A stretch of DNA of 64,000 nt. Source: Candidatus Omnitrophota bacterium. Its GTDB lineage: Bacteria > Omnitrophota > Gorgyraeia > Gygaellales > Profunditerraquicolaceae. The stretch's first letter is position 1. Each line of letters begins with the position of its first letter. A model generated the notes under the pieces. It saw only the letters and a list, made by a program, of their open reading frames with translations. It was not told the origin of the DNA and searched no databases. Positions 9,001-45,000 of the stretch are shown here, piece by piece. The position numbers and the translations under genes were made by a program. Location of the stretch: NCBI GenBank assembly GCA_030650425.1, contig JAUSED010000005.1:78932-142931 (forward strand), read 5' to 3'.

Positions 9001-12000
9001 TCAATGACGCCGACAGAGAAGTCAGGGAAGAGGCGCTAGTTACCTATTGTGTATATGCTTTGCGCGGTAAATTTTCTAGTGATTTACAAGATCTAAATAA
9101 CTTACCAATGCGTATCTTTTTTTATGCGAAGAGCCTTTTTGTAAAAGAGGGAGAGAGAAAAGAATTAGTAACGATATTAAAACAACCAACAGATACCGTA
9201 AGCTTTCTTGCTGGTTTTTCCGGAGAAGACTTGCGCGGAGGAATTTACAGTAAGGAGCAAGCAGAAGGCTATATTCGTTTATTTAGAGAAGCGGTTGTTT
9301 CTGAAGTAAAGGGATTTTTAAGCACAATAGAAGCAAGAGTAAGAAGGGTAAGCCTTGATGGAAGCAAGGTTGAAGAGGATAAGAAAACAATTATCAGCCT
9401 GATATCGGAAATGAGACGGGAATTAGAAAGGCGGCAGGCTGGCAGCCCGATTTTCGTAGTTCGAGGCCTATCTTTGCGGCAGTATAACCCCGGTTTCAGA
9501 TTGCTGTATTTATCTGGGCATATTTCCAGTTCGCCGATAACCTCCAGAAGCAACAACATAGCAGGAGCGCCTTTTTCTAAGTCATTTTTACAATGGCTAA
9601 GTGACTCAGGTATAGGATTAAGGAGTCCTCCGTCCAAGCTGCTTGCGGCTTTTGTCTTCCTTGCATATCTAGCCGCATCTATTTTCTCGCCAATAGTAAG
9701 CAGAGCAGATTCAGTTCAAACGCCCTCAGGTGGAAAGGCGCCTCAGGAAATTCCGCAGGAAAAACCAAAGCAAGAAGGACAGGCGTCCTTGAAAGCTCCG
9801 GCAAAGGCCGCTAATGATTTAGCGCAAGTAAAATTAAGCGAGGCAATAACTGCTCTCAAGAATAAAAAGAGGCCAGAGGCCGAAGGATTCCTTAATTCTG
9901 CGAAAGAATATTTGTTCGAGGTTAAAGCCGGTAAAATTGTGGCTAAAATTGAAGATCATAAAACTTTGGTAGAATTTGCGGAGCTCTCAGAGCGCCTTCG
10001 CAGGTTCGATGATGCTATTTTGGCTTATAACGCGGCCGCGGGAGTTGTTGAAAAAAAGGATCCGGATTTAGCAGAATATTACAGGTCAATAGCTTCGTCT
10101 CTCGAACCGTTTAAAAAAGGAGAAACGTCCCGTCAGCCGCCTGCGCCTCTATCTCCTGAAGCTTCTAAGAAAGCGGTAACGTTAAGCCCGGAGGAGCAGG
10201 AAAAGCTAAAAAAGACCACCAGGGCCGCATTAGATAAAATCGAAAGATCTTTAGGGACACCTAAAGGTATCCCGATAACGGATGAGCAAAGAAAGGCGGC
10301 GAAGAAGAGTCTTGATGAGGCAAAGGAAAAGTTAGATAAATCACGGATAACTGACTTTGATCTTTATGCTGAAATCGGCAGAATATATAATTTATTAGAC
10401 TTCTATAAAGAGGCAGGAGAAGCAAACGCGAAAGCGCGGGAATCCGTCGCATCAGACGCAGAGAAAGGATTTATTAAAGACCAGATTCAGAAGAACGAGA
10501 TGGACGAGATGAACGCGCCAATAAAGCGCCCCGGCAGCTCGCCGTTAGGCAGTTCCAGCTCAAAAACCTCAAGCCCTATGGAAGATTATGGAAGATTTTT
10601 GGCTTTGGCGGAAGAAATTAGCAAAGTGATTAAAGCTGCACAGGCCGCCATCTTTGATAAGAATAGAGAACAAGGAGTTTTTGAGCTTTATGCGCAAATA
10701 GAGCACGCCGCGAACTTATTTGAAAGTTTTAAACGAATCTTTCATTCTTTTAGAATCACACCTGAGCTTAAAGAGCATTATACGGAGATAATAGTTGCTT
10801 TAGCAATGAATTTCCCGTCGCGAATTGAGCCAGAGTCAAATCTTATCCGAGGAATGGATACAGGCCTTACCGCAGCTGCCGAAAAAGAATTGAGGGCTAT
10901 TTTATCATATAAAGAGGCTAAGCAGGTACTATGGCAAAAACTGCAGCCGTATATTATAGGTTTAGATGAAATTCCTGAGCCTAAACTCAGCTTAGGCCTG
11001 CCCATGGTGATTAAATCGTTTCATAACCTTGATGAAATAAGATATCTCCAGGAAATGGCTGGTAATTTCGAGCTTCAATTCTGTGTGGTTTCGCCTAAAA
11101 GGACGCCTTATCCTTTACTTATTTTTTCAAAAGAGCTTGGGGGTTGGGCTGAAATAAGGTTTGTGCCTTTTGCCTCTGCGGTGGCCCATACCCAAGCTTA
11201 CTTGATTCCTTTGGAAGCAAGTCAAGAAGACGAAAGAAAGGCAGGATTAGTCAACAGAGTTTATCGAATTCCTTTCCTTGTTTTAGGTTTTGGTTCCGGA
11301 AAAGATACTCATTTGGAAATCTCCTGGTTTACAAAAAATGCGCCTTGGTTTCATTACGAGCGGGAAAATCAGGAAGAAATAGTCCGGTTTTTACGCAAGG
11401 TTAATTTCCTGGAGACATCTTCTCCCCTTATTGATAATACCGGTGAGGAATGGACAGATAGAGAACTGGAAATCTGGCGATTGTGGGCAAAAGGCGTAGA
11501 TCGGGAAGCTATAGGCAAGGCATTAAATGAAGGTGAACGTTTTATAAAAAGGGTCATTTCAAAGATTATAACAAAATTTAATATTTCAAAAAGAGGTCAA
11601 ATAGCGCACTTTATCTCTATTAAGGAGGCAAAAAAGTACGGCATAGATTTAGGTATTAGCTTAAAGGAGGCCTTAGATCAGGATTATCTTGCGGCAATTA
11701 AGCTTTATCTGAAAAATGAGCCTCCAATGGATATTGACAAAAAATTCAACAAAAAAGATTCGTGGTTTTTAAAGGCGGTCTTTCCTGTTATGCTTATTTT
11801 AACCAATATGGATATGGAACCTTTAGATGATAAATTCTCTGATAGTTTCCGCCAACGGATTACGGATGTTTTAATTGAGCAAGGAATTTTGGAAAAAGGA
11901 TTTACGATTAAGCCTAAGGAAGTTTTGAGTGAACGGGAGAAAAAGATTTTGTGGTTGTTTATAGCCGGTTACAATCCAAAAGCCATTGCTTTGACGCTTT

Positions 12001-15000
12001 CTCTACCCGAAGGCATCCTTCTTTCAGACATCCTCTTTGCTATGAAGCAAAAACTAAGGGTGCCTATAGATCAGCCTTATTATGCTTTGCCTAATCCCGG
12101 AGTTTTAGCCTTAGTTAAGAAAGCCATAGAGTTGAATGAATTACCGCAGTATATAAATTTAGATGATTTAACTTCCAGAGTTAAGCGAAATTCCTTGGCT
12201 CCAAGTGAGTTAAAATTGCTGCAGAAAATTTTGGAAGGTAAAAAAATGAAACAAATACCGCCAAGCGAGTTAGGTTTAAATTCTAGAAATGGAACAGAAG
12301 AAGCCCGCTACTATTTAAAGAATAAAATGGGGCTAAAAGGCTTAAGGCTCAGTAGTTTGGAGATGCGCTGGGAAGCTATGCGTCAGGGGTATTTCTTGAG
12401 GACAGAGTGGTTGGTTTTAACCAAAGAAGGCAGGATCCTTCATCAACCTTGGCCATTAGAGGACACCTTAGTCCTGGTTGTAAAAGCGAGAACCAGATCC
12501 GGGAAACCCGCAGGTTTTTATGTTTTTTATCCAGATGCCTCTCTAAGTCAAAGAAAAAATTTATTCATTAATATCAAACCCTATTCTCGCCAATTTTCCG
12601 AAGAATTTAAAGAGTCTCTTAAGGGAGCCGCGCAATATGTTAAGTCTCAAAGGGGTTCCCTGAAGAAAAGCAAGAATATGAAAACCAAGGCCTATAATCA
12701 GTCTCATGTCTACTTAGCCGGCTATTTTTATCCCAAATACCTGAAAGAAGGGTTTTTTGCTATAGAAGCCTTTAGCCTGACGTTTAAAGAAATTAATTAT
12801 TTTGGCCCGGTAAAAGCCTCTTACCTGAGATTTATTTTAGAGAATTTAGGCTATGACTGTGCCTTCTTAAATGTTATTTTTGAAACCAAAGAATATTATC
12901 AAAAGATAAATTTGGATATTCCGGAATTTTTTAGAGATGGCGAAGCAGCGGGTTTTAAAGGGCTAAAGGCTTTCGAATATTGTTTAGAAGCGATAAAGGA
13001 ACGCGATCGGAAAAGAGAGGTTAACCCGTATATAATTGAAGGGCTTCTTTCACACAGCGGTTTTCGAGTTGGGTATTACGGGACATTATTTACAATTTAT
13101 AAATTTTGGAATAAGCACGGAGTAGATGTTATTGAAGAGTATCAATATGATGCTTATGATCCTTCTGAATTCAAACGCCTCCTTCGCCTCCTGCCGTTTG
13201 AGCTCCCTTCATTAAAACAGCGACAGGATAGAGCTTATTATCTTGAACGTATATTGAAAGAGGCTGGCAGCATTGAGGATGTCATCTATTTGCGGGTTGC
13301 CAATGGAGTAAACGGCGATGAAGAATTTGGAGTTATAGATATACCTCATGAAGCCTCTCAGGAAAAAGCAGTATTTTTAAACGAGATAGCTGAAAAATTA
13401 GGCTCTAAAGCTCACATATTATTGCAAGCAAGGGATTTATTTGGTAGCGAAGAACTTTCTCCCGAAGAAGAAAGAGAGCGTGATTCCTTGATTGAACAGA
13501 TTCAACAATTAGCGGGTATTGATAAGAAAGAGACGAGTGAAAATGATACAAATGGCGCAATTACAAGAAAGACAGATGAGCAAATTGGGATGAAAACATC
13601 AGTATGGACTGAAATTTCCAGCTCGCCGGTGGAAGAGGAAGATGCAAGGCAGCGCGCGGTTCAAGTTACAAAGAGCCTTATTAATGACTTAAACAAAGAT
13701 ATCCTAGAAAAAAATAAAGTCACGAGAGAATCTGTTAGAGTGCAATTTGCCGATAAAACAAAAGACGAGAAAATCGAGCTCAATTTCGGTACAAAATTGT
13801 TAAATTTTGTTTCATTAATGGAGATAGTGAATATTTCCCCAGCTATCAAGGCAAAGGCTTTGATCAATATAGCTAGTAAAGACAGGAAATTCATGTTGAT
13901 TTTTTATGCTCATCTGAGGGTTTATTTCTATGATAGTTATGAAGAGAAATGGTCTTCGGTTGAATTAAACGCGAACAGGCAAAAATTTGGCCCCGAAGCG
14001 CTGTTGAAGGATGAGGCGGTAAAAAGTTTTATAAATAATGTCCTTAGAGAGCGTTTTGCTCAATTAAAGAACTTCAGAAAAATTATTAAAACATATCCTC
14101 TTCAGGATTATAGCTTAAACGGAGGCATAAAGATCAGCCTTGATAATACGATCTTTGACCTTCCCAATAGCAAAGAGACAGGGCTTGGCAGAATTGTGAG
14201 AGAGAAAATAGGGATAGTCAGGGATAAAGGGGCGCGGGGGACGATATTTACCGCCTTGGTTGAAAAGGATTCGTTTGAAAAATCCGTTCCGCGCTATCTT
14301 TTATTTTTGTCCCTTGTCGACACAGTTGAGCTTTATAACCAAGGCGGGCTTATTACTGTATACCCCAAAGACGGAAAGTATTACGGCTATAGCGATGACA
14401 TCTACATCAATACCTTTCTTTTTTATATTGTTTCTAAACAAGAGCCGGCATGGAAGCGTGTAGTTCTGAAAAGAGGGTCGAACAAAATAGTTATCGGAAG
14501 CGATGCTGATGGCGGTTTCATAACACCGCCTAATTCCAATATGCGCTTAGATTCATTGGAATTCCATAAATACGGCCCAACGTATGTGGATGTTAAGAAG
14601 CTGATGGATAGTAAAGGCAATTTTATCGCAGGATTTGCCGGCGTCGGTAAAGGCCAATATTTGGTTAACGGCATAGGATGGCCTTTGAAAGATAAGAAAT
14701 CTCCTGTAATTATTTTTGAGGGCAAATTTTACCTTACTACTGTGGTTAGATGGTTATTGCAAAAGTATGGAGAAATTCCGGTTGCAGAGCCCTTGGAAAA
14801 AGCCATTAAAGCGATACCGTTAAGGATGCTCCAGACTAAAAATACCTTCTATAGATTAGAAAAGACGGCAGCTAAACGTACGGTTTATGATATGGAAACA
14901 GATCGATGGTTGAAGAAAGATGTCTGGAAGGTTTTTCCATATGATCAAGAAGACGAAGGCTTGGGGACATATACACTTAATGAAATTGTTAGTATTCTCG

Positions 15001-18000
15001 TAGAGAATATAAGCAAGTCTAATCCCAAGCATAATCATCTCTTAGATTTACGTCCAGCTATTCTAAGATACCTTCCTTGTGTCAAGGATCAAAAACGGCT
15101 CGAAGCAATCAAAGCTAATCTTAAGTTAGGCATTGGTGAAGTAAAGCAAGAATTAACTGAAGATGAGCTCATGCGAAAATGGATAGGAACCGCTATCCGT
15201 CGTTTAACCGAAGAAAGAGAAATAACCCCGGTTTCTTCTTTTAAATTACATGCCTTATTGGGGATTGAATATCGAGTGGCTACAAAAGCTGCCCGGCGTG
15301 AAATAGAATACTTAGAAGAGATCGGTTATCTCATTAGAAAGAAGGAAGGGAGCAATGAGTATGAGCTAAATAACACCCATTTAATTTTAATTGTAAAATC
15401 GTCGGTCAATTCATCGCCGTTAGCCGAAGGAGTGTCCCTTTGGGGAGCGTCCCCAATTAGAGTGATGGCCGCGGGCATTGCCCTTATCACCTATCTCCAC
15501 CTTGTATTATTTACTCCTGTTTTTGCCGCGGAGCAAGCTTTAAAAGCTCAGCCTCTAACGATTGCTAACCCGGTAGTCTCGCTCCAAAAAGCTATAACGG
15601 AGAAAACAATACAGCAAACAGGACTCGATCAATTAAAAGTAAAGAAGGCCGCTGATGAGATAAATAAGTATATTGAGGAGCATATTAGGAAGCATAAAAA
15701 AATAGATGAGAAAGAAATTAGCTGGATATTAGGAAAGATGGGAGTTAGTTTCGCGATTATTGATAAGATTATTGCTAATAAGGAGATAAAAGAGATTAAA
15801 ATTCTTCCCAAGTCTCCGGGGGAAGAGATAATAACCATAAAAGTGCCCCCTGTTTTGCTTCCCCAACAAACGTATATCGAGCCTGCCAAGCAAACGCCTC
15901 GTGAAGCAAAGGTAAAAAAACCAACGCCGAAACCAGCAGTTTCTATTAAGGGGGAAGCCGCCATAGCTACCATTCCGCCCGGCACAAAACTTTCGTTGGA
16001 TGACAAGAAAATCACGATTAACCACCTCGTAACTTTGACCAGAGGGCCCGCCGGTATAATAATTACCATAGAAATTCCTCAGTGGGATAAAAATAAGCCT
16101 AGCCGCAGTAAGCTACTGAGTACTTTCAGCGGCGCGATGTTTACCTTATTGCCATTTTTAGGTATCGAGACGAGCCAGACGAATATCGATACTTTTGTGA
16201 AGGTGGTAGCAAGCTGGAACGGAAAAGATAATCCTAATAAACTAAGCCCAAGAGAAAAAATTTCCTATCCTATCGGAGAAGAAAGGGCGGCTGATTTACT
16301 TAAGGCCTTAAAGCCTGCCGCGCAAAGAGAAAAAATAATTGAACCTCCGGTTAAACAGGAAGAACCTAAAGAACCTTCGCAGGAGCAGCCTGCGTTAGAA
16401 AAAGAAGAGCAGATACTGCCGGCTGATGAGGTTAAGCAGCTTTTGGATGGGTTGACAAACGACAAGAACAGGGAAAACAAAGAGAAGATTAAAGAGCTGG
16501 TTACAAAAGTGGAGCGGCTTAGCAAAGAAAGCAGGTTTGCGGATGTTCCCCCCGAACTCGTGCAGAACCTTTGGATTGTGGTTGGTAATTATTATCAAAA
16601 CATAGGAGACGCAGAGAACGCTATTCGTGCTTATAAGGAAGCTGTTGAAGTTGGTAAGAAATTAGCCAAGCCATCTACCGGTCCCTATTCTCTTTTGGCA
16701 CAGCTCTATAAATCCCAAGGCCAGAGCTACCTTAAAGAGGAGCTGGAAGCCCTAATTTCATATATTGAACTGGCGAAGAGGCAAGGCATAGCAACGCCTA
16801 CCGAGGAAAAAAGGCGTAAGGAAATAGAAGATCTGCTGCACGGACAAAAAGTTCAGGCTGACGCAGAGCAAATTATGCAATTGCTGACAGGGGCTTCTCA
16901 GGATGTTGAAAGAAGAGATAAGCCGGCTGCTTTGGATAAAGTTAATCAGGCCATAGGAATTATAAAAACAAACAATATGGTTTTCCCCGGCGCATGGCAG
17001 CTTGCCGGGGAGATTTATTATAAGTTAGGCGATCTTAATCAAGCCCGGGATGCTTTCGCAATCTCCGGAGAAACGCCCGAGGCAAAATATGGTTTGTTTT
17101 TGATCGGGTTCAAGCAAGGCAAATTAGACGAGGCCCTGCCTACTTTGGGAGCCGCGATTGAAATGGCTTCAGGAGATAATAAAGACGCCTATCAAAAAGC
17201 ATTGTATGCTGCCGCGGAAGAATTAGAGAAAAGCGGTAAGCCTGAGGCGAAAAAATATTTCGAACAGATTATTACTTTGGATTCCGGAAGAGCGGGAGAT
17301 GCGCAGGTTAGATTAGGGGATATTTATTATCAACAAGGAGATTTTAAGCAGGCCGCTAAGTTTTATGCGGATGCCTTAAAGAGCGATTCTAGCGATGCCC
17401 GAAACACAGCCAAGAGCCAGCTTGCGCGGATTAGCTATAGGAATTTTATGAGGAGTACTCTTCCTATGCTTTTTGTTGGTTTGGTTTTATTCATTATCGC
17501 AGGAATCTCTGCGGGTAGAAAATTCAAAAATAAATTCAAACAAACATTAGAAAAAAGAGGGATACCTGTTAGCCAAGAGGACTTGGAAGATGAAAAATTC
17601 CAGTTAGAGCAAATAATAGCCAAGCCTGAAGCCCAATGGGTCCGTAAAGCCCTGTTTCCTTGGGGAATGATCACCAGCATAAAAAATTCTTTGAGGAGAG
17701 AGAGGATTAGGGAATTAAATAAATATAGATTTGCGCGTGACGCCGGTTGCGGGGAAGAGGAGGTAAAGAGATTCGAGAGATTGATGGTTGTTTACCGGGT
17801 TACAGGAGAAAAAGGATGGGCAAAGATAATCCCCTATCGCGTTATAGGCTTTATAGGAGGCCTGTCTTATGCCGGAAAAGTGATCTTGCCTCCCGGAAAT
17901 CAGCCAGCCGCGAAAATAGTTCAACTTTATCTTGAGATTGAAGGAGTAGGGATAATATGCAGGCCCGCGACCGACTTTTATGTCGATGAGGCTAAGGCAA

Positions 18001-36000: not shown

Positions 36001-39000
36001 TTCGGGCAGGTAAAGATGCTTACGATATAAAAACAATCAAGGAGGCGCGCAGAGCGGAGAAAGAAATCGTGGATACTCATCTCTGGCTGGTTAAGTTAGC
36101 GGCTATCCGGTATTTAAGAAATATTCAAGGGGTTAAAGAACCGGAGGTTAATCCGTATCTGGGCGATCTTATGCCTAAAGGGGTTTCAAAATTGCTCGAT
36201 ATTATCAGGATCTATGCTTATAAAGACAGGCAGTTTTCTGAAGATGAAATAATAGATGAGCTTGTGGCATTTTTCACGAAAGCGCTTTATGAAGACTCTA
36301 CGGTTTATAGAAAAATCACTTATGTGGAAGCCGCGCGCGATGATTCGGATGAGGCCGGCGATCTATCAGAAATAACAAGAAGTATGGCCGCGGTTGATCA
36401 TAATGCCCCTGATAAGATACTTGAAGACTTGGAAGCGCTGCCGTTAGACGAGGAGGACGCTTTGATCCAGCATAACCTATTGAGCCCTTACATAGATGCC
36501 ATAAAAGATTCTGCAGTAAGGCAGGTTGTCACTTTGGCTTTTCAGGGTTTAAGTATGGAATTTATTACGCGGCGAACCGAACTGAACGAGAAAGAGATCA
36601 ATCAGTATTTAAAACAAGGCGGCCAAGAGATCCAGAGCTTAGCCGGTTTAAAAGATTACGCGGCAGCGGCGAAGCGCAGTGCCTCGCCGGTTTCGGCGAA
36701 TAGGTCCATAGCCTCAAGCCCGGCTAATTCTCCTTCGACAATAGAAAAGATAACTAAAGAGATTGCCAACGCGCTTCAGCTAAGCGGTATTAAATCTCAA
36801 CTAGTTACTCTAGAAGGGCTATTTAATTATTTTAAAGAAGATTATCCCCAATTATTAGAGCCCGGCCGATCAAAAGAAGAGAAGTTCTGGTTATTGTGTT
36901 TGGGTTTTTTTAAGCTTGAAAATATCTTTATGCTGGAATGCGATTTAGGAGGGAAAATTCTTGAACTAAAAAATGAAATCCTGCTTAAGATGAAGAGCCT
37001 GGAAGAATCATTGCTCTCTAGCTATAGGGCCTTTGAGGTGGTTGAGTATTTTAAGCTGGGCTATGAAAATTATCCTTTTGATCTTAAGCGGTTAGAACAC
37101 GAGTCAGGAAAAGAATTCTTTGAGCTTCCTCAGAAACCAGAGAAAAGGGTTTTTGCGGGCGGGTGGGAAAGGCGGTATGCGCAGAAACTTTCTTGTATTT
37201 TCGCCAAGGAGCTACAAAGGGAATGGGAAAGGTTATCGCTTAAGAGAGATTACACCTTAGCGCCTCTTTATACACTCAGCGTAAATGAATTTATAGGAGA
37301 TACTAGGCAGTTTATACATCCTGCGAATTTTATTTACTACGATATGTCATTGTTAGATCCAAATAAAGGGATTACTGAAGCAAGGATTAAACAGGATATG
37401 ATCCTTAGTATTGCCTCTATGGATATTTATTTAGAATGGATAAGCCGGCATTGGGATTCCGACTTAATTAAACAAAAAGGATATACTTGGGAGAAAAATA
37501 GGATAAGCCTGAAATTCATAGAAAAAAACCAATCGCCTAACCTTTCTTTGTTTGGTAGAGCCCTTCCCCCTGTTAAGCTGAGGCCGTCTTACCGTATATT
37601 AAAAAATTTGACTGATGCAGAAGCGCTGGAGATTATATGTGGTACTCGGAGCGATGTTGGTTCTCCTCTAATTAGCCGGGAGCCAATGCGTACAGTTATT
37701 CCTGAAATACAATCTGTCGCTTCGCCGGTTTCAACGCTGGCCAAGGCTATTGGCAGTATTATATTTAATCTTTATTTAATATTTACTGCGCCTATTTATT
37801 CCACTCATCAATTAGTTTATGCGCGGATGCCTTCACAAGGTATTTTAAATATAGTTACAAGGCCAGTGGTTAGACGGTTTGAAGTTTTAAAACATCCGGA
37901 ATATAATGATTCCTTTTTGAATGCCGAAGACTGGCTTAAAGAAGGCAATAAGGATTTTGCGGTGCGGTTTTATTTACTCGGATTCCTTCAAAAGGCGGAA
38001 GTTATGGATTTACCTAATTTCTTAGAAGGCGCAGTAACCCTGGCTCAAGTTGAGGAGTTTATGGCTGGATACTTAGAATCCGTGTTGGAAGGCCTTGAGA
38101 ACTGCGTCGATCCGGTTAACATAGCCCCAATACAGGACTGGATCATTGAGCTTAAGATAGAGGCTTTGAATACTTCCAAGCGGCTATTGTCAAAAGAAGA
38201 TAAAACAAGGATTAGGATAGAATTCATTAAAAGATTGCATCAGCTTGAAGAAGGGCTAAACATAAAATCTCGTCCGCCACCGAAGGATAGAGACACTAAC
38301 CGCGCCCCCGGCATCTTCCCAAATATTGACTGTAGTTCATCCAGCCCTACTTCTTTCTTGCATCAGAATGATGCTAAGGATATCTATTTTAAAATTTGTA
38401 CCAATAATGATGTATTAGCTTATCGGGAACAGATTATCAGCCTTGCAAAGCCGGAGTTCAGTTCTACATATTGGGCTGAATTTATCGAAGACAGCTTTGA
38501 AAGCAAATCAGCGTTGTTTATCCTTATGTTTTCTAAAGAAGAGCTGATAGGTTTGGTTTTAACGCGTGACGGGCAAGATAGCGAGGAGGCATTCATTACG
38601 GCGTTTGTATTAGGCAGCCTCATCAGGCACAATGGTTATGGAATAAAAATATTCAGGACAGCCATCAAAGCGCTTAAAGACAGGAAATATACCTCTCTTT
38701 TTTTGATAACTGAGGAAGAGGAATGTATGAGAGGCCTGCTTGAAAGATTAAGGGCGTCGGCTGATATTATTAATTTAGAAGGCGGCAGGCCGGTTAGCGA
38801 TTACCAGTCATTCGCCAAGTGGTTTAGAGCCTATTTTCCTGGCAGCCCATTACCTAATGGCCCCGCCGCCTCGCCGGTTTTGGGAAAAATAGAGCCGTCC
38901 CCTATTTCGTCTTTGGCGATAGGGATCCTTAAAGAAGCCAAGGAACGGCTTAAGGAGTTTTTGGTGTTAAAAGTAGTTGTGGTTGGCATAATAGCAGCTG

Positions 39001-42000
39001 GAGTTATATTGGTAGCTATAGCTTATCTTTTTTCATTTATATATCGATTTTTCTATTTCTTTCTCAGAGATGCTCCAAGGCCGAATCTTGTTGAGCAGGC
39101 TAAGTCAAGAAGAAACAGCAAGAGACAAGATAAAGGAAAATTTTCAAGCTCTCTGGGAGCCATCGGAGCCTTTAGGGAACTTTTTAGCATAGATAATGAA
39201 GAGGTGCCTCTTGAGAAGATCCCAAGATTGATGAATAAGAAATGGGTAGATGAGATTGAAAAAGGCAACAGAATTATTGATGTGAAGACGAGGACTCTTG
39301 TTGTCCTAACAGTGCCATTTAATGAAATAGCCGACTTAAATATAGAGTTGAGTACTTTAGAGGTTGAAAGCTGCACAATGATTAGTTTCAGGGGTAGAGA
39401 TAGAGAAGGGAATATGGTTTTGGGGTTAGGCCATATTTTTGAGCCTGCGCGTAAACTGCAAGATTTTTCAGTTTTTGTTGTCCGGGCCCTATTGTCTATT
39501 CTCAAGGCTAGAGGCGTACATGAATTAGGCATGCTTATCCGTTATGACCCAATTTTCACCCAGCTCCCTAAAGAAATCATCAAAGGATGCAAGCATTTAT
39601 TCAAGAGGCCGGCTATAATTTTATCGAGAGAGAACAACTTAGTGGAAGATGTTATCGTTACTCCAAGAGGGGTAACGCGGGCCTTATACCAATATATAGT
39701 ATATGAAAGTGCCGGCCGTGGTTTTATTAGTCGAGAAAAAGTTGTAACTTTGTTTTACAATTGGGGTACCTTTAACACTGCCGCTTCGCCTATGCATACC
39801 CCGGATGAGGATAATAAACGAATATTTATTGAAGTAAATAACTTATTTAAGCAGGGCCGATTTAGAGAGGCCGTGGGCAAGTTGAGAGAGTTATTAAGTT
39901 ATCCTCTCGTTAATTTGGACAGGGCAAAGGCTTTGCATATGCTGGGAAGTGCCTTTATAGGATTGAAAAAGCCTTACACTGAAACAATGTTCTGTTTGGA
40001 TTCAGCCTTGCGCTTACTTAAAATTGATAACGTCCAGACACAAGAGTATTTGGATTTAGAGCTAGACATTAGTTTGGGGTTGGGACTTACGTATAATAAA
40101 TTAGGGCTTCCGGATAAAGCGCTTGGATGTTTCGAGAAGATAATAGAAGGATGTAACGACAAAGACATGCTTGATGCCGCGCGTCAAAGTATGCTGGAAG
40201 CTTATTTGATTAAGAAAGATTTTCCTGTTTTCTTTGATAAATTAGGCGATTATTTAAGCAGTAATTCAAATATAGATATAAGAGATATGACCTCCGTCTA
40301 TATCCTTGTGAATAGCTACCACCGTTATTTGGATGAGCATATCGATGAGGCAGGGATCCGGGGGGTTATTTTACTGGCAGAATTTTATTTCAGGCGCGCG
40401 GAAGAGTTATTAACCAAAGAAAAGATAAAGAACCATTCAGAATTTGACCTTTATCAGGCAGGAAGGGTTACCGCTGGTTTTGCTTTTATTTTCCTGCATC
40501 TTTACGCAAACAGCGATGTTCTGCGGGATAGGCACATCGCGTATTATTATAGCGGCAGATGCCTGCTGCATATAGCATGGTTTAAGGAATATTATTTAGC
40601 CAATGTGAATATAATTTTTTCCGCAGAAGGCCTAGAGTTAAATTTGGAGAATATGAAAGAAGTTTTGTCATTGGCAAGCGATTATCTGCTGGATGCCATA
40701 TTGATTGCGGAAAACGATGCTAAAGGCTCCGACGTAAGCTTTGTGAAAAAGGTAAAGGCTACCTTTTACGCGATATCTAATAAATTGAACTCTTTCGGGA
40801 TTTCATCTAGCCCCTTAGATGACGATAATCATAAATTTGAAATATTGCCTATGTTTTTATTAGTATCGCAAGGCGGTTCCGCCGCCTCGCTGGTTTCGGA
40901 AGAAGGGGGAGTATTTATTTCTTATCCTTCATCGGTTGAAGAGAAAAATCAATCCGTTAGTTCATCCATCACTGCGGCAGAGATAGCTGGCATATTCCTT
41001 GAAAGAAGCTGGCTTTCTATTTTTCCAGCAGCTCTTTTCTGGGCAGGTTATTATTTGTTTAAACTTCGCAAGAACATTGAATCTCAAAAAACAAGTTTTA
41101 ATTATTTATCCGTAAATAGCCAAAAGCTCTTCGATTTCAGGAGATTAATCCCTCAAGATAAAAAGGAGGTAATTATCTTGGCATCAATAGCCCTGATAGG
41201 GCTTACCACTATTGTTTTTCCAAGCCTATGCAGGGAGATTATACAGCTTGGCCAAGTAGTTAATCATCATCATATCTGGAAACTTCTTAATTATATTGTT
41301 GGAACGACAGCTGTAATGCGGGCTATTATGGTAGGAAGCAGAACGTTTTTATTTTCCGGAATATATTTCTTTTCAATGATAATATTTTCAGCTTTATGCT
41401 CGGTCTTTATCTTAAATAATATAACCTTATACGCTTATGAGTGCATTTTTGGCAACTTTAAGGCCTTTTTAGTCTTTATGGGAGCATTTTTCATAAGCGA
41501 TATTGTTGCTATGTTCAATAGGTTGATTTATAAAAAGGAGACAATAGGAAAGAAGAATGGTAAGCATTCATTAGGCGATAAAATTAACAGTAACGAAGCA
41601 AGTCCTACTAAGGAAATAAATTCCGGGACCGGCGCAGCTCATAATGTTAAGATAGCTCCGTCTTCTACCCGAACCAAGGCCAGCCAAGAGTTCCTATTGA
41701 GATATCTCCAAGAAACGAAAGAAAAGATAAACCGAAAGGGCCAAGATTCTAGTTCGCCTTTAGAAAATAAAGTTAATTCAGTAAATAAAATGGATGGCTC
41801 TATTTTGCCAAAAGACAACCCCGCCGCCTCGCCGCTGGCGGAAGAAATTGCGGATTGTAAAGTTACGATGGCCGGCTCATCCAGCCCTATTGACAATCCT
41901 GAAGCCTGTAACATTAATGCCGCTGAGATTATGCATAGCTCTATCCTTATGTTTTTAATTGAAAACCCTTATAAAGAGGTTAATCGGGTAAAGTTAAGCA

Positions 42001-45000
42001 GAAAATTTAAGAAAGAACTGAATTGTTCATTCAATGGGGTAATTGAGGCTTTGGAAAGAGAGAGCCTGATAACTGTAAATGGATTTAAGATTAGCATGGA
42101 TTTAGAAAATATAAGGCAGTTTATTCTTTATATCCTCTCCTACTACCAACAGCCTCAAAGTAAGGTTCAGTTGATGGAATTAAGCAGGATAGGTGAGAAA
42201 GAACTGGATAGATGTTTAAAGGAATTGCGAAGCGAAGAAGAAATCTTCTATCATCACCCAGAAGGCTATATTCCGGCAAAGATTGACAGGCTTTTGGCTA
42301 TGTATATAAGCGATAAAGATATGATTGGCGCGTTGGAAAGGAAAATAGTATTTTTGAAGAATAATGGTTATAAACTCAATGTTTTTGCGCACGCGGCTCT
42401 TTACCTTTATTATTTAGAAACCGGAAGATATTCTAAAGCAAATATACAAGCTAAGATAGTTGGCAATCCAAAAATCATTTCTGCGCTGTTTGTTGATATG
42501 GCAGACATTTTTTATCACGCGAAGAAATACCGGCAACAAAAGGAATGCCTGGAAGAGGCATTTAGATTGTGGCTTTTAGAGAAAAGGTTAATAGAAGAAC
42601 AAGATTATTCTTCGGTTGGTTTGCGCATGATAAAAGCAGAGCGGCTTTCCATGGAGCATAAAAAGCGTATATTATTTTTCTTGGAGGAATTAGCAGTTGT
42701 AAGCGGGCAATTGTTAAATGATAAAACAGCCTATGATTTATACTCTCCTTTAATCAGGCATTTTGAGTCCAGCAGTCCGTTGGGAGAAAATGACGAAAAA
42801 AAGTCCGGCAATAATTTAGCCAAAAACGGTCTCTCCGCCTCGCCACTGGCGCCACAGGAGCGCCTTGCCATCCTTTTCAATGCTAATACAGGGCTTAAAA
42901 ATATTCTGGAGATTTATTTCCGCCTTACAATTAATATCGATTTAGAGGCAATGGGAAAGATGATATATAACTTTATAGTTATTGACTATGAGCCTAAAAA
43001 TGAAGAGTTCGATAAGATTGATGCTTTAAGCGATGAAGAGAAGATAGAGTTGCTTAAGGAAAGACTAGTAGATAAAAATACTATGCGGGGGATAATCTAC
43101 GAAAATGAATCCATTCCAATCTTAGAGCAAATGCTATTTATTGATGAGCCTAGTAATGTAGCATTCCGCGCAACGCGGCATATATGCGATAAATTTATTG
43201 CAGAATTTATAGAATACCAAGAATTTGAAGATTTCGCTAAAGAGGTTTTAGATAAAATGCCAGATTTTCGCAAGGAGAGAGTCTTTGAATGGGGAGTTGT
43301 TTATCTATTGCTTTGGGCTGCGAAAATAATATATGAAAGACAGCATCTTCCGCAAAAAAACTCCTCTTCCGCTCAAGGCGCCGCTTCGCCGGTGGAAAGC
43401 ATAGCTACGTTAGAGAGGATTCTTAACGAAGGGTTTAAGGGCCCGGCAGCTCAGTTAGAGGCCTTTGGCCCGCAAAGCGATGATTTTGGATTTTTCCACG
43501 AACAAGGCAGGGCCGCGATATTATTAAGCTTGCTTAAAGCTGCCTTTCCCCGGATGAAACAAGATTTAAATTATATCATTACAAGCAAATGCAATTTGCA
43601 GTGCGCTCCTTGCATCGCGCAGTTGATTATGCAGAAAAACTCCAATGAGGATTTTTCTGAAGAGGTATTTAAAAAGAATATCTTAGAATTAAAAGGTTTT
43701 GAGAATATTTGGTTTGTAGGAGGGGAGCCATCTTTGTATGGCAAAAAGCCAGATGAAAAGGTTAGCGAACGCTTTATCAGGCTGGTAAATTTTGCCGCGA
43801 GCTTAGTCAAGAATGTTTTTATTGATACCAATGGCACTTTTATTATTGGGCTTAGCGATGAAGAATTAGAAGTATTATTTTTACGCTTTAGGAGAAATGT
43901 AACCTTTGTGCTGTCTGTGGATGAGTTTCATGAAGAGCAAATAAGGAGAAGATATGGGGTAGAGTTGAAGGAGATGATTGATAGGTTTAAGTCGTTTAAA
44001 GACAAAGGAATCATTAGCCTAGAATATAATATCAGGCTTGCCGGGAAAGAATTTAGGCATATAGAACAAGGGAAAATTTTGAGGCATTTTGGATTAGAAG
44101 AAGAATACAGGAATTCGAGAGAAGGCCTTTTTATTAACCAGCTGCAGGCGCAGGGAGGCGCTTTCACAACGTCTGATGTAAAAGCTATCCCAATTAAACT
44201 TGCTAATTTCATAAGGCACCAAGAAGAGCCAGAAGCCTTATTTTTGTTTATAGCTCTTGACGGCAGGTTAGTTGTCAGCGACCACGCAACATTTATCCCG
44301 TTCGATATAGAAGAGTCAGCTTTAGGCAATGTCTTTGAAAAAGAGCTTTCAGCTGTACTGTTTGAATACATTCGGCAATTATTGCGTTATAGGCCTAAAG
44401 AATATGAGCAAGGCCTGAAGTTGCTTAAGGCAATATGGGAATACCCTGAAGGAGAAAAAGAAATTAAGCAGTTTCGCCGGAAATTCTATGAACTTTCGCG
44501 GATTATTGTAGGATCCGTTTATGAAAAAATAAACGCAAGGCCTAAAAAAAGCTTGGCAGAAAAAATGATTGAGGTAGTAAAAAAATCCCGCGGGACAACG
44601 ATATGGTCTGTTAATGAGAAGGAGCAGATAAAGGAATTTATTGAAAAATATGATGAATCTCTTATTTTGGAGTCTATTCCTTCTTTGGCAAGGGAATTCC
44701 TGGATTTTATGCTTACTTATCAAAAAATTCCAGTATCCCAACCTTTACTGCTGATTAAGGCTAACGGATTATTGGGCTTTGGTTATGGGGTTTCGCGTGT
44801 CAATGATGTTAAGTATTTATTATTTGAGCGTTTAGACCGAGTGATTAAGACTTCGTTAAACTGGCTTCACGATACATTCCCCTATAAAAGATGGGATGAC
44901 CTAATCTGGTTATTTTATTATTATGCGTATTCATATCTTAAGAATACTGATTCTAACGAGGCATGGATTAAGTACTTGCGTCTCTGTTTGGGGGAAGAAT

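Follow-up and report, generated by a model that had tools for sequence, protein, structure and literature searches.

A giant Omnitrophota open reading frame divided by junction peptides into protein-sized units, with a possible polyprotein-like organisation

How could DNA-binding and sigma-like domains work within a polypeptide that crosses the membrane repeatedly? This question is raised by a locus of Candidatus Omnitrophota, for which an initial annotation proposed a topological paradox, to be settled either by processing into separate products or by non-canonical roles of the domains. The window analyzed here is the whole stretch of 64,000 bases. The single ORF described previously, with a translation of more than 21,000 residues, was confirmed by a six-frame count, which found no stops in frame +3 across nt 3-63998 (21,332 codons) and 802-2,021 stops in each of the five remaining frames. 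Strong domain matches lay in frame +3 over its full length (e.g., GGDEF 4e-41, LOG 6e-49), and composition and GC skew were uniform over the 64 kb. The ORF exceeds the window at both ends, with the N-terminus and C-terminus lying outside.

3..63998, + strand, internal fragment of the giant ORF, 21,332 codons, with Pfam and NCBIfam matches along its whole length

Published descriptions of the regulatory and multi-enzyme class of Omnitrophota giants give a TM density of about 2%, and DeepTMHMM analyses of whole chains have led the field to read them as a 'TM-only, membrane-anchored cytoplasmic-domain architecture'; cleavage points in such giants are called unknown in the searchable literature. 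The window ORF fits this class by its HD domain and by further Pfam and NCBIfam matches to HATPase_c, radical SAM, GNAT and methyltransferase domains, and by its TM density (see below). The best reading is that it belongs to an Omnitrophota-type giant gene and does not encode a single integrated membrane protein with many passes. The window's 21,332 aa yielded no adhesin, CAZyme, dockerin or toxin domain.

The most regular feature of the ORF is a short peptide, [S/A]-S-P-[V/L/I], that recurs in 70 copies, compared with a shuffle mean of 2.8 (SD 1.7, maximum 9).

1041..63488, + strand, junction peptide [S/A]-S-P-[V/L/I/M/A], 70 copies by motif count, 12 nt each
+ strand, first bases of copies 1-10: 1041, 1053, 1752, 2886, 4698, 6249, 7050, 8253, 9528, 10536
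+ strand, copies 11-20: 10569, 11418, 13620, 15411, 15447, 18051, 18108, 18630, 19305, 21054
+ strand, copies 21-30: 23643, 23727, 24492, 24630, 27054, 28176, 30159, 31026, 31968, 33546
+ strand, copies 31-40: 36681, 36714, 37719, 38868, 39783, 40806, 41751, 41826, 41880, 42771
+ strand, copies 41-50: 42837, 43383, 46026, 46206, 48009, 48054, 48930, 49230, 50487, 50793
+ strand, copies 51-60: 51576, 53037, 53088, 54372, 54453, 54519, 54810, 54837, 54888, 55623
+ strand, copies 61-70: 56361, 57375, 58341, 59139, 59967, 61293, 61344, 62136, 63453, 63477

SSP is the most enriched tripeptide in the ORF (50 copies versus 3.7 expected, 13-fold), and the residue after P is V, L or I in 62 of 74 cases. 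Because the 50 SSP copies are written in 31 different 9-nt codon strings, using both the AGY and TCN serine classes, and the nucleotides flanking the motif carry no information (0.07 bits), the constraint acts on the peptide. A nucleotide-level signal or shared linker ancestry may nevertheless lie behind the motif, since its third codon positions are G/C-biased, and a conserved hinge or modification site would give equal motif statistics. Internal translation starts were considered and ruled out: what follows the motif does not look like a start codon, and fewer copies than expected have an SD-like sequence upstream (11 of 70 versus a 29% background).

Spacing between junctions falls into two classes, 4-28 aa (doublets within one linker) or approximately 170-1,045 aa, so that the copies form 53 linker clusters and delimit at least 54 units, whose median length is 332 aa. 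Their flanks are linker-like, being enriched in S, P, N, T and G, and only one of the 70 copies falls within an annotated domain (aa 17696, at the LOG1 start, which is BLAST-derived and loosely defined). Some of the delimited pieces are awkward as gene equivalents, measuring 43-99 aa, or 1,042 aa with multiple domains, or combining M48 with a methyltransferase.

The putative regulatory domains lie in the following units and patches.

11454..12341, + strand, three GerE/LuxR-type HTH (Pfam, NCBIfam; third by eye) at the start of unit 10 (aa 3809-4539), at nt 11454-11612, ~11925-12092 and ~12198-12341 (aa 3818-3870, ~3975-4030 and ~4066-4113)
12480..13262, + strand, helical ~60-aa repeats of the GFGY..YISS.YKLY.HY type, towards the C-terminus of the GerE unit, from exhaustive search
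28185..30158, + strand, unit 21 (aa 9395-10052), with a sigma-70-like domain at nt 29229-29867 and without a hydrophobic segment
31977..33122, + strand, about seven tandem XRE/Cro-type HTH (HTH_31, HTH_3) at the start of unit 24 (aa 10659-11181), no hydrophobic segment
33273..33617, + strand, HTH-like patch, previously called sigma at 33.4 kb, paralogue of 36402-36767, no family support
36402..36767, + strand, HTH-like patch, previously called sigma at 36 kb, paralogue of 33273-33617, no PDB or Pfam support

The three GerE units reported at 11.4-12.3 kb were borne out, with Pfam matches in two stretches (44.6 bits versus a cutoff of 23.5), an NCBIfam match to the MadR C-terminal HTH and the third unit recognized by eye. 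In the relative P0141, too, a GerE array comes directly after SSPV, and the repeats of unit 10 (query ~680-940) match P0121, P0122, P0125, P0127, P0128 and others, many of them with a GerE-like HTH. The array of about seven XRE units at 32.0-33.1 kb was likewise found by Pfam (HTH_31, 89 bits, 2.1e-25; HTH_3, 85 bits, 4.4e-24), in four stretches in 31.8-32.7 kb and two more in 32.5-33.7 kb. Seven units were counted by eye at aa 10659-11040, units 1-3 and 4-6 being an internal duplication (45% identical).

Two or three sigma-70-like modules had been proposed, and the one at 29.2-30.0 kb stood as a divergent domain. All 24 PDB matches to aa 9743-9955 at E<=10 were sigma factors (best RpoS, E=4.7e-4, regions 2-3), and NCBIfam matches to SigB/F/G (8.6e-8), RpoS, FliA, RpoD and RpoH were all far below curated cutoffs. 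Pfam gave no match at aa 9743-9955 and a weak Sigma70_r4_2 match in unit 21 (E=0.003-0.015), whose N-terminal third showed weak HTH-like matches alone (nt ~28383-28482). The modules placed at 33.4-33.5 and 36.05-36.66 kb were not supported; these two patches are mutually paralogous (31% identity, E=2.6e-11), and their resemblance to a region-4-type HTH was seen by eye only. The W-x2-EE-x2-L pattern of the suggested Myb/SANT-like repeats is absent from 28.2-28.9 kb, where Pfam gave weak Sigma70_r4_2 and HTH_24 matches alone (E 0.015-0.026) and PDB gave spurious GSTs. The winged-helix units suggested at 41.9-42.3 kb were not significant, with no Pfam match and PscE (E=0.028) and ZBP1 Z-alpha (E=0.96) as the best PDB matches.

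Transmembrane segments were called by hydropathy only, as 19-residue windows with a Kyte-Doolittle mean >=1.6, and a hydrophobic stretch was found at every position where a TM or signal-like segment had been annotated. The ORF holds 22 distinct hydrophobic windows, of which about 17 are credible TM helices (approximately 1.6% of residues). Three or four weak windows, inside the GerE2 HTH or LOG core or isolated, are probably buried cores.

9642..57521, + strand, about 17 credible TM helices, Kyte-Doolittle 19-residue means 1.7-2.95
+ strand, first six helices: nt 9642-9698, 15456-15512, 17460-17516, 19368-19424, 19440-19496, 19776-19832
+ strand, next six: nt 38958-39014, 41169-41225, 41358-41414, 41463-41519, 49029-49085, 49488-49544
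+ strand, last five: nt 49566-49622, 56370-56426, 56556-56612, 56721-56777, 57465-57521

For an uncleaved chain, the paradox does hold at one point or more. A strong, charge-free helix at aa 3214 lies between the HATPase_c and RelA/SpoT domains and the GerE block, and would leave the ATP/GTP-dependent HATPase_c/RelA-SpoT domains and GerE on opposite sides of the membrane. Elsewhere the paradox is weaker than was claimed, because the sigma-like, XRE and GGDEF domains share one 6,375-aa stretch without a strong hydrophobic segment (aa 6611-12985); hydropathy by itself does not fix the TM parity of the cluster at aa 6456-6610. What the initial annotation missed is that the hydrophobic segments and the HTH/sigma domains reside in different junction-bounded, protein-sized units, the HTH and sigma-like units having no TM helix by hydropathy. 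The choice that it posed between processing and non-canonical roles was a reasonable one, and this segregation leans to processing. In addition, the first hydrophobic segment lies <=35 residues from the unit start in 8 of about 12 TM-bearing units (P=1.5e-6), the site of a signal peptide or anchor in an independent protein, a placement that also favours processing.

Several units resemble whole proteins.

2895..4697, + strand, unit 3, HD (HD_4, 2.6e-13) plus RelA/SpoT-like domain of small alarmone type (TIGR00691, 5.6e-24)
19314..21053, + strand, unit 15 (aa 6438-7017), N-terminal TM region plus C-terminal GGDEF (3.9e-41)
49239..50486, + strand, unit 38, M48 (HtpX-like) membrane metalloprotease (Peptidase_M48, 4e-5) plus methyltransferase domain
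53046..54371, + strand, unit 42, tandem LOG/TIGR00730, flanked by SSP at aa 17679 and aa 18124

The TIGR00691 match in unit 3 covers model positions 8-249 and starts about 37 residues past the junction. In unit 15, the GGDEF match extends to the C-terminus of full-length DGC models (252/252, 454/457) and ends at aa ~7011-7017, 1-7 residues before the SSP at aa 7018; its charge pattern fits N-in/C-in as a free-standing protein by the positive-inside rule. Judged by sequence, this unit is the equivalent of a complete membrane-bound diguanylate cyclase. Unit 38 retains an intact HEITH (HExxH) motif at aa 16481 and TM helices at aa 16496 and 16522, and position 8 of the Peptidase_M48 model falls 8 residues past the junction. 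Unit 42 matches stand-alone proteins of 447-450 aa over 90-93% of its own length, and the ends of these free-standing LOG-LOG relatives, which are ordinary genes adjoining lgt, project within about 20 residues of its two junctions. Across the ORF, the units include soluble enzymes (RelA/SpoT-like, LOG-LOG, radical SAM, GNAT and methyltransferases) and membrane proteins (the TM-GGDEF cyclase and the M48 protease), besides multi-HTH proteins (3x GerE, 7x XRE) and one sigma-like protein of divergent sequence.

Partial proteins encoded in Candidatus Omnitrophota MAGs (P0133, P0123; L004 is an Omnitrophota MAG contig) are the nearest relatives, and each has its own junction peptide bracketing a shared domain, domX, on both sides. 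These peptides are RSLG (P0123), LRPLAA (P0143), G[L/A/M]EE (P0124, P0138, P0142), [R/G]SE.R (P0139) and SSP[V/I/A/L] (P0133, P0141). They also lie between Pfam domains and are 74- to 200-fold enriched where countable, although each relative is a short partial protein that contributes 3-6 copies. In the window, domX occurs twice.

10578..11417, + strand, unit 9, domX copy a (aa 3526-3805), between two SSP junctions and directly upstream of the GerE unit
31035..31967, + strand, unit 23, domX copy b (aa 10345-10655), between two SSP junctions and directly upstream of the XRE unit

The copies are paralogous (34-41% identity, E=4e-41). Copy a combines a helical bundle with an alpha/beta domain and a JAMM-like E...H-T-Q...S-x-x-D signature in which the second His is lost; copy b keeps E196, H235-T-H237 and D249 and lacks the Ser. 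The family recovered by exhaustive search conserves E...H-x-H...S-x-x-D on matching strand and helix elements, with a His-to-Ser spacing of 8 residues versus 7 in canonical JAMM. The AF2 model of copy b (16-sequence alignment; pLDDT 86.6, pTM 0.86) spans nearly junction to junction, and JAB/MPN proteins dominated its top Foldseek lists with no significant match; Pfam, PDB profile search and hhalign against Rpn11 gave no JAB/MPN support. domX is flanked by junctions in every lineage examined, forms the genuine C-terminal end of P0129 and P0140, and also occurs within a complete stand-alone gene of an Omnitrophota MAG. Speculatively, it may be a JAB/MPN-like protease that cuts the junctions, a role for which the M48 unit of the same ORF is another candidate.

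The explanation that we favour, while holding it at about even confidence, is that the giant ORF has the layout of a polyprotein, with probable processing at its junctions. At least 54 protein-sized units would be concatenated head-to-tail, with an in-frame junction peptide in place of stop codon, spacer and start codon. From the junction pattern we infer recognition by a lineage-specific endopeptidase, which would divide the chain into separate proteins in the manner of viral polyproteins, either while it is being translated or afterwards.

It is possible, though we doubt it, that the product stays a single uncleaved mega-protein, beads on a string tethered to the inner membrane by about 17 helices. 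This is the current field reading of such giants, in which [S/A]SP[V/L/I] would serve as a Ser-Pro modification site or as a hinge, rigid or flexible, between domains, and the S/P/N/T/G-rich flanks agree with linkers. However, a hinge needs neither a 4-5-residue consensus at 70 sites with diverged codons nor a different, equally strict consensus in each related protein. The HTH and sigma-like domains would then act at a membrane-nucleoid interface or as protein-protein modules and not as diffusible transcription factors, roles that fit a sigma-like domain far below cutoffs and atypical tandem HTH arrays. Most DNA-binding units could share the cytoplasm, given the 6,375-aa stretch, but the helix at aa 3214 would still part HATPase/RelA-SpoT from GerE, and an uncleaved polytopic protein predicts neither the N-terminal clustering of hydrophobic segments nor the whole-protein matches.

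We consider it unlikely that the units are effector cargo, the giant protein or its pieces being exported to a host or prey cell, where HTH, sigma-like, GGDEF, RelA/SpoT and LOG domains would manipulate transcription and nucleotide signalling and extracytoplasmic DNA-binding units would be intended. Host dependence or predation has been attributed to Omnitrophota, whose giant ORFs have been read as surface or effector proteins, and many proteins related to domX or to the repeats that accompany GerE start with signal-peptide-like N-termini. The similarities to known effectors are weak (the XRE array to the Wolbachia Wmk HTH effector, NCBIfam 1.8e-7; P0143 to the type III effector HopBA1), and the units look housekeeping or regulatory, with a need for ATP, GTP, SAM and Fe-S (radical SAM, HATPase_c, methyltransferases). 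Against export also stand the missing adhesin, CAZyme, dockerin and toxin domains, and the window contains neither the N-terminus nor a secretion signal for the whole chain. That the window holds no real gene (an assembly chimera, decayed pseudogene array or chance open frame) is highly improbable in view of the stop-free frame, which excludes chance, the strong domain matches all along it, the uniform GC skew and composition, and a junction grammar common to independent Omnitrophota MAG fragments.

Under the favoured polyprotein-like organisation, cleavage would set free the HTH and sigma units, which carry no TM helix, as soluble proteins of the cytoplasm, and each unit with a hydrophobic segment at its N-terminus would enter the membrane independently. 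The topological paradox would then vanish. If processing is true, one giant Omnitrophota gene product would amount to many proteins of normal size.

Across all 21,332 codons of frame +3 (nt 3-63998) no stop was encountered, against 802-2,021 stops in each of the remaining five frames; the ORF is therefore longer than 64 kb and extends beyond the window on either side. GC content (about 0.41) and positive GC skew were both uniform, and L, I, E and K were abundant in the translation, a composition unlike that of repetitive adhesins. Searches with Pfam and NCBIfam matched diverse domains, predominantly of cytoplasmic type, all along the frame, as listed below together with the open frames on the opposite strand.

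Features of the giant ORF
Frame +3, CheA-like HATPase_c (Pfam/NCBIfam)
Frame +3, two HD/RelA-SpoT regions (Pfam/NCBIfam)
nt 5589-6041 (aa 1863-2013), second SpoT-like HD region (NCBIfam; absent from Pfam top matches)
nt 21651-22052 (aa 7217-7350), pseudouridine-synthase-like region (NCBIfam; absent from Pfam top matches)
Frame +3, GGDEF (4e-41)
Frame +3, tandem LOG (6e-49)
Frame +3, two PrmA-like methyltransferases (Pfam/NCBIfam)
Frame +3, TPR, GNAT, radical SAM, M48 peptidase, GerE and XRE HTH (Pfam/NCBIfam)
nt 39053-39532, 45410-45922, 54671-55387 and 61380-61865, minus strand, four antisense ORFs of 159-238 aa

The four antisense ORFs are most likely chance open frames opposite the coding strand. 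No SecA-DEAD, C39, S8 or dockerin domains were detected by Pfam or NCBIfam in the 64-kb window.

The window resembles the Omnitrophota giant ORFs of the multi-enzyme/signal-transduction class (West-Roberts et al. 2023, bioRxiv 10.1101/2023.11.21.568195; Nielsen & Lui 2026, bioRxiv 10.64898/2026.06.07.730766; Seymour et al. 2023, PMC10066038) in its length of more than 20,000 aa, in having about 1.6-2% of residues in TM helices (estimated by hydropathy for the window), in its mosaic of HATPase_c, HD, GNAT, methyltransferase, radical SAM and TPR domains, and in its mostly unique sequence with Omnitrophota MAG fragments as nearest relatives. It contains at least 21,332 codons, compared with the at least 10,000 of the class, and the Pfam 'Module 1' domains (HATPase_c, methyltransferase, GNAT and HD) and radical SAM are all present. 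Its placement in this published class is based on domain content, TM density and the origin of two relatives, P0133 and P0123, which are 'partial' proteins from Candidatus Omnitrophota MAGs.

Upstream of each HTH array lies one copy of a unit of about 300 aa, termed domX (copy a, aa 3526-3805; copy b, aa 10345-10655), and the two are paralogues. The copies are 34-41% identical (E=4e-41), and each starts directly past ...SSP and ends at ...TSSP. SSP was the most enriched tripeptide of the ORF (50 observed versus 3.7 expected), and the full motif [S/A/V]-[S/A]-S-P-[V/L/I] occurred in 70 copies versus 2.8 +/- 1.7 (maximum 9) in shuffled sequence. The spacing of these junction peptides was bimodal, either 4-28 aa, corresponding to doublets in one linker, or about 170-1,045 aa, and the 53 linker clusters delimit 54 units with a median length of 332 aa. 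Of the 70 copies, just one overlapped an annotated domain, LOG1, whose start is only loosely defined. The window shows one feature expected of a polyprotein, a short conserved peptide bounding units of the size of mature proteins.

The peptide, which is conserved and lineage-specific, sits at boundaries that match protein termini elsewhere. The LOG-LOG unit (SSP aa 17679 to SSP aa 18124) aligned over 90-93% of its length with stand-alone tandem-LOG proteins of 447-450 aa, encoded by ordinary genes adjoining lgt, and the termini of these proteins project to within about 20 residues of both junctions. Additionally, the GGDEF match extended to the last residues of full-length cyclase models, ending 1-7 residues before a junction, and the M48 match started 8 residues past one. 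The end of domX is a true C-terminus in the relatives P0129 and P0140, domX lies within a complete 594-aa gene of a Candidatus Omnitrophota MAG, and the AF2 model of copy b (pLDDT 86.6) occupies the junction-to-junction interval; a single-sequence AF2 model of copy a with the GerE unit was unusable (pLDDT 38). We consider it very probable that the ORF consists of units joined end to end, each bounded by junctions and equivalent to an ordinary protein.

In two different MAGs, lgt (prolipoprotein diacylglyceryl transferase) directly follows the stand-alone tandem-LOG genes P0001 and P0002 (L001:10001-12147; L003:10001-12166), which points to a conserved gene pair. Within the window, two units open with the same conserved peptide right after the junction, ...SSPVEKTVGATVVTRGAAS... 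(nt 54780-54971, aa 18260-18323) and ...SSPLKEIVGATVVTRGAAS... (nt 61230-61418, aa 20410-20472), a duplicated unit N-terminus with 41% identity over 66 aa.

The initial annotation had described several kinds of DNA-binding modules in this ORF, and these were recovered in part. Two of the three GerE units (nt 11454-12341) scored above the Pfam cutoff (44.6 bits versus 23.5) and the third was recognized by eye; the GerE unit consists of three tandem HTHs followed by helical repeats, with neither a receiver nor a ligand-binding domain. The approximately seven XRE units were recovered as multiple HTH_31/HTH_3 stretches (2e-25), with seven seen at nt 31977-33122 and scores above the gathering score (HTH_31 89.2 bits, HTH_3 84.7 bits, in 4+2 stretches). 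XRE units 1-3 and 4-6 reflect a duplication (45% identical), and seven tandem units are atypical for the XRE/Cro-C1 family. The sigma-70-like modules held up at one location, where a real but divergent domain lies at 29.2-30.0 kb: all 24 of its 24 PDB sequence matches were sigma factors (best RpoS, 4.7e-4, spanning regions 2-3), and NCBIfam returned SigB/F/G, RpoS, FliA, RpoD and RpoH at 9e-8 to 4e-4, far under their cutoffs, with a best score of 32 bits versus a cutoff of 234, so that no family threshold was reached. Pfam Sigma70_r2 and r4 were not detected in this region. By these sequence matches the domain is sigma-like, a putative member of the sigma-70 family. The patches at 33.4 and 36.0-36.7 kb, paralogues of each other, lacked family support, and a sigma identity for the 36-kb patch was set aside without significant support. 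Similarly, no significant support was obtained for Myb/SANT repeats at 28.2-28.9 kb or winged-helix units at 41.9-42.3 kb. The helical repeats that follow the GerE units (about 60 aa each, nt 12480-13262, aa ~4160-4420, consensus ...LEGVLTGFGY.V.YISS.YKLY.HY...) matched no Pfam family and recur as tandem arrays of as many as 10 or so copies in distant relatives (P0121, P0122, P0125, P0127, P0128, P0130, P0131, P0134, P0136, P0144 and P0146-P0149), many of which also terminate in a GerE-like HTH.

Hydropathy analysis found hydrophobic segments wherever the initial annotation had placed them. By hydropathy only, about 17 are credible TM helices, representing about 1.6% of residues, and 3-4 weak segments lie inside an HTH or LOG core or are isolated. 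None of the credible helices falls in the GerE, sigma-like or XRE units (units 10, 21 and 24); they are located in other units. Of the approximately 12 TM-bearing units, 8 have their first helix no more than 35 residues from where the unit begins (binomial P=1.5e-6), which is where an independent protein carries a signal peptide or N-terminal anchor, and the GGDEF unit taken alone has the classic charge pattern of an N-in, periplasmic-loop, C-in protein. The conflict previously pointed out between DNA-binding modules and TM helices in one chain holds in part. If the product is a single chain, a strong helix at aa 3214 lies between the GerE block and the HATPase_c and RelA/SpoT domains, but the sigma-like, XRE and GGDEF domains lie together in a 6,375-aa stretch without strong hydrophobic segments. 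Since the hydrophobic stretch at aa 6456-6498 (43 residues) is compatible with one helix or two, in/out parity along a single chain is unreliable when derived from hydropathy.

Word-indexed protein database searches and exact-peptide scans of genome and metagenome collections returned no homologues of domX. An exhaustive HMMER search gave 31 distant matches, and family-alignment scans of genome and metagenome collections gave two loci each, one of them a weak Treponema match (E=2e-4). The carriers with multi-unit context have their own recurring peptide on both sides of domX, as shown below.

Junction peptides flanking domX in relatives (residue positions)
P0123: RSLG (243), domX 253-516, RSLG (545)
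P0143: LRPLAA (50), domX 143-419, LRPLAA (444)
P0142: GLEE (55), domX 105-325, GLEE (332)
P0124: GMEE (70), domX 263-417, GLEE (420)
P0138: GLEE (34), domX 93-310, GAEE (314)
P0139: GSEAR (447), domX 460-725, RSELR (741)

The junction of P0123 sits between a receiver domain and domX. Junctions of the form SSP[V/I/A/L], as in the window, were found in P0133 (1,959 aa) and P0141, and the order in P0141 (SSPI, methyltransferase, SSPV, GerE array) mirrors that of the window. The nearest relatives of two units were Candidatus Omnitrophota MAG proteins, one of which has the SSP junction of the window.

Several further features of the relatives were observed. P0143 (1,419 aa, on a 93-kb ENA contig), which has a weak match to the HopBA1 type III effector (E=1.3e-4), terminates exactly in its own junction peptide (...LRPLAAGE), so that a junction peptide can double as a C-terminal tag in some lineages. 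The N-termini of P0124, P0126, P0135, P0137, P0138, P0142 and P0143 carry a signal-peptide-like hydrophobic segment with L-R-x-P within a few residues, and in several of these the first junction peptide comes immediately after. Variants among Omnitrophota relatives include ALRPP, MLRPM, ALRQT, YLRAP and QLRTP, and a 962-aa ORF adjoining a domX gene (L004:4057-6945) also starts with such a segment and L-R-x-P. This combination may act throughout the lineage as a signal for sorting or processing.

We infer that the junction peptides would serve as endoprotease recognition sites and that the ORF would be processed like a polyprotein; the HTH and sigma units would then be set free in the cytoplasm as soluble proteins, and membrane units could insert on their own. 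The principal alternative is that the junctions are passive hinges. In viral polyproteins, protease/site co-evolution gives rise to strict consensus sequences that vary from lineage to lineage, a pattern that a passive hinge does not predict. We put the chances that the junctions are cleaved at about even.

Explanations at the nucleotide level fared less well. The 50 SSP copies are encoded by 31 codon strings using both serine codon classes, and the nucleotides flanking the motif carry no information; judged from this codon variation, the constraint on the junction is at the peptide level, and a DNA or RNA element, such as a recombination scar or an RNA-processing site, was largely rejected. 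What remains on its side is a G/C bias at the third codon positions of the motif, with a GCC-TCC-TCG-CCG consensus within a 41% GC ORF (e.g., nt 11418-11429 and 31968-31979). TCG, the rarest Ser codon overall (12%), accounts for 44% of the middle Ser in SSP, and the bias could reflect a rare-codon pause at unit boundaries, shared linker ancestry or an overlaid nucleotide signal. Internal translation starts were rejected because the codon following the motif is not start-like (mostly GTT, CTG, ATT or ATA) and the sequence upstream is poor in SD-like elements.

If the junction peptides are cleavage sites, the ORF itself would hold candidate proteases, namely the M48 unit and, more speculatively, domX. 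The HEITH motif of the M48 unit is intact. Three HExxH motifs outside this unit (PHEVFH at aa 6550, nt 19650; IHEYVH at aa 9175, nt 27525; SHELLH at aa 15507, nt 46521) may be chance occurrences or additional divergent metalloprotease-like units. The domX family consensus is E...GH[T/S]H-x8-S-x2-D in an alpha/beta half, where a strand ends in HxH and a helix begins with D; its conserved E...H-[T/S]-H...S-x-x-D resembles that of the JAB/MPN+ (JAMM) metallopeptidases (Cap3 of CBASS, Rpn11, CSN5 and prokaryotic JAB), whose motif E-x(n)-H-x-H-x7-S-x2-D has a spacing of x7 rather than x8; unlike these, domX has an additional N-terminal helical bundle of about 150 aa. Foldseek lists for domX, all sub-threshold, consisted mostly of JAB/MPN proteins (Cap3, CSN5/6, BRCC36, Rpn8/11 and a viral deubiquitinase). 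None of the 16 family members had a Pfam match at E<=10, a PDB profile search with domX returned no JAB/MPN match, and hhalign against Rpn11 (with an approximate sequence) gave a probability of 0.8%. Each window copy is also without one motif residue, as copy a reads HTQ, with a His ligand lost, and copy b has G replacing S. Owing to the negative JAB sequence-profile tests and these missing residues, domX is offered as the protease hypothetically, and we consider the assignment unlikely.

As in the polyproteins of picorna-, flavi- and potyviruses, which have an embedded protease and conserved sites of cleavage, many functionally unrelated proteins, soluble and membrane, share one frame, a short consensus peptide that differs between lineages marks each boundary, and such peptides lie on both sides of a candidate protease unit. 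The window differs in being a cellular gene, about 10-50 times longer, for which cleavage is proposed, and no homology to viral proteases was found in it. Regulated-proteolysis systems for membrane-tethered transcription factors and sigma/anti-sigma pairs (RseA/sigma-E, SREBP-type RIP, ToxR/CadC) also combine DNA-binding or sigma modules with TM helices in one polypeptide from which proteolysis could release them, and the window contains an M48 membrane metalloprotease; unlike in those systems, the HTH/sigma modules and TM helices of the window lie in separate units, hundreds to thousands of residues apart. Neither an anti-sigma domain nor a site-2 protease (M50) was detected in the window by Pfam and NCBIfam. 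In Porphyromonas gingivalis, cleavage at recurrent simple sites turns the product of a single gingipain/adhesin polyprotein ORF into several mature proteins, a handful of related extracellular domains, whereas the window holds dozens of unrelated, mostly cytoplasmic-type proteins.

Omnitrophota giant genes are already known, and the fate of their products is an acknowledged open question. The three Omnitrophota papers (10.1101/2023.11.21.568195; 10.64898/2026.06.07.730766; PMC10066038) treat the giants as single chains and call cleavage points unknown, and neither these nor a huge-protein survey (PMC11573180) mention HTH/sigma units or the junction peptide. All four consider cleavage possible, and the survey names protease motifs, being unknown, as the obstacle. 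No paper combining 'polyprotein' and Omnitrophota was found in the searchable literature, which covers few subscription journals. Both the grammar of junction peptides and the polyprotein interpretation built on it appear to be new.

We regard it as a tentative possibility that the multi-enzyme and regulatory giant ORFs of Omnitrophota are true cellular polyproteins, whose junctions (SSP-V/L/I in the window; RSLG, LRPLAA, GLEE and RSExR in relatives) serve as cleavage sites and co-evolve with a cognate embedded protease, possibly the JAB/MPN-like domX. One stop-less 'gene' would then replace dozens, encoding transcription factors, a sigma-like factor, second-messenger enzymes and membrane proteins. 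If true, this would be a previously unrecognized way to organize and co-express a large share of a bacterial proteome, and it would account for whole-chain topology predictions that place cytoplasmic enzymes 'outside', such as those in the 2026 catalogue (bioRxiv 10.64898/2026.06.07.730766), where metabolic enzymes are forced onto the extracellular face. The junction peptide provides exact, testable candidate cleavage sites, 70 in the window alone, and a simple rule by which giants can be split before they are annotated, modelled structurally and examined for topology unit by unit. If the junctions are cleaved, the giants are cellular polyproteins, and the numbers of 'genes' and regulators counted in these reduced genomes need to be revised; if they are not, the motif nevertheless represents a new architectural element in the largest known proteins.
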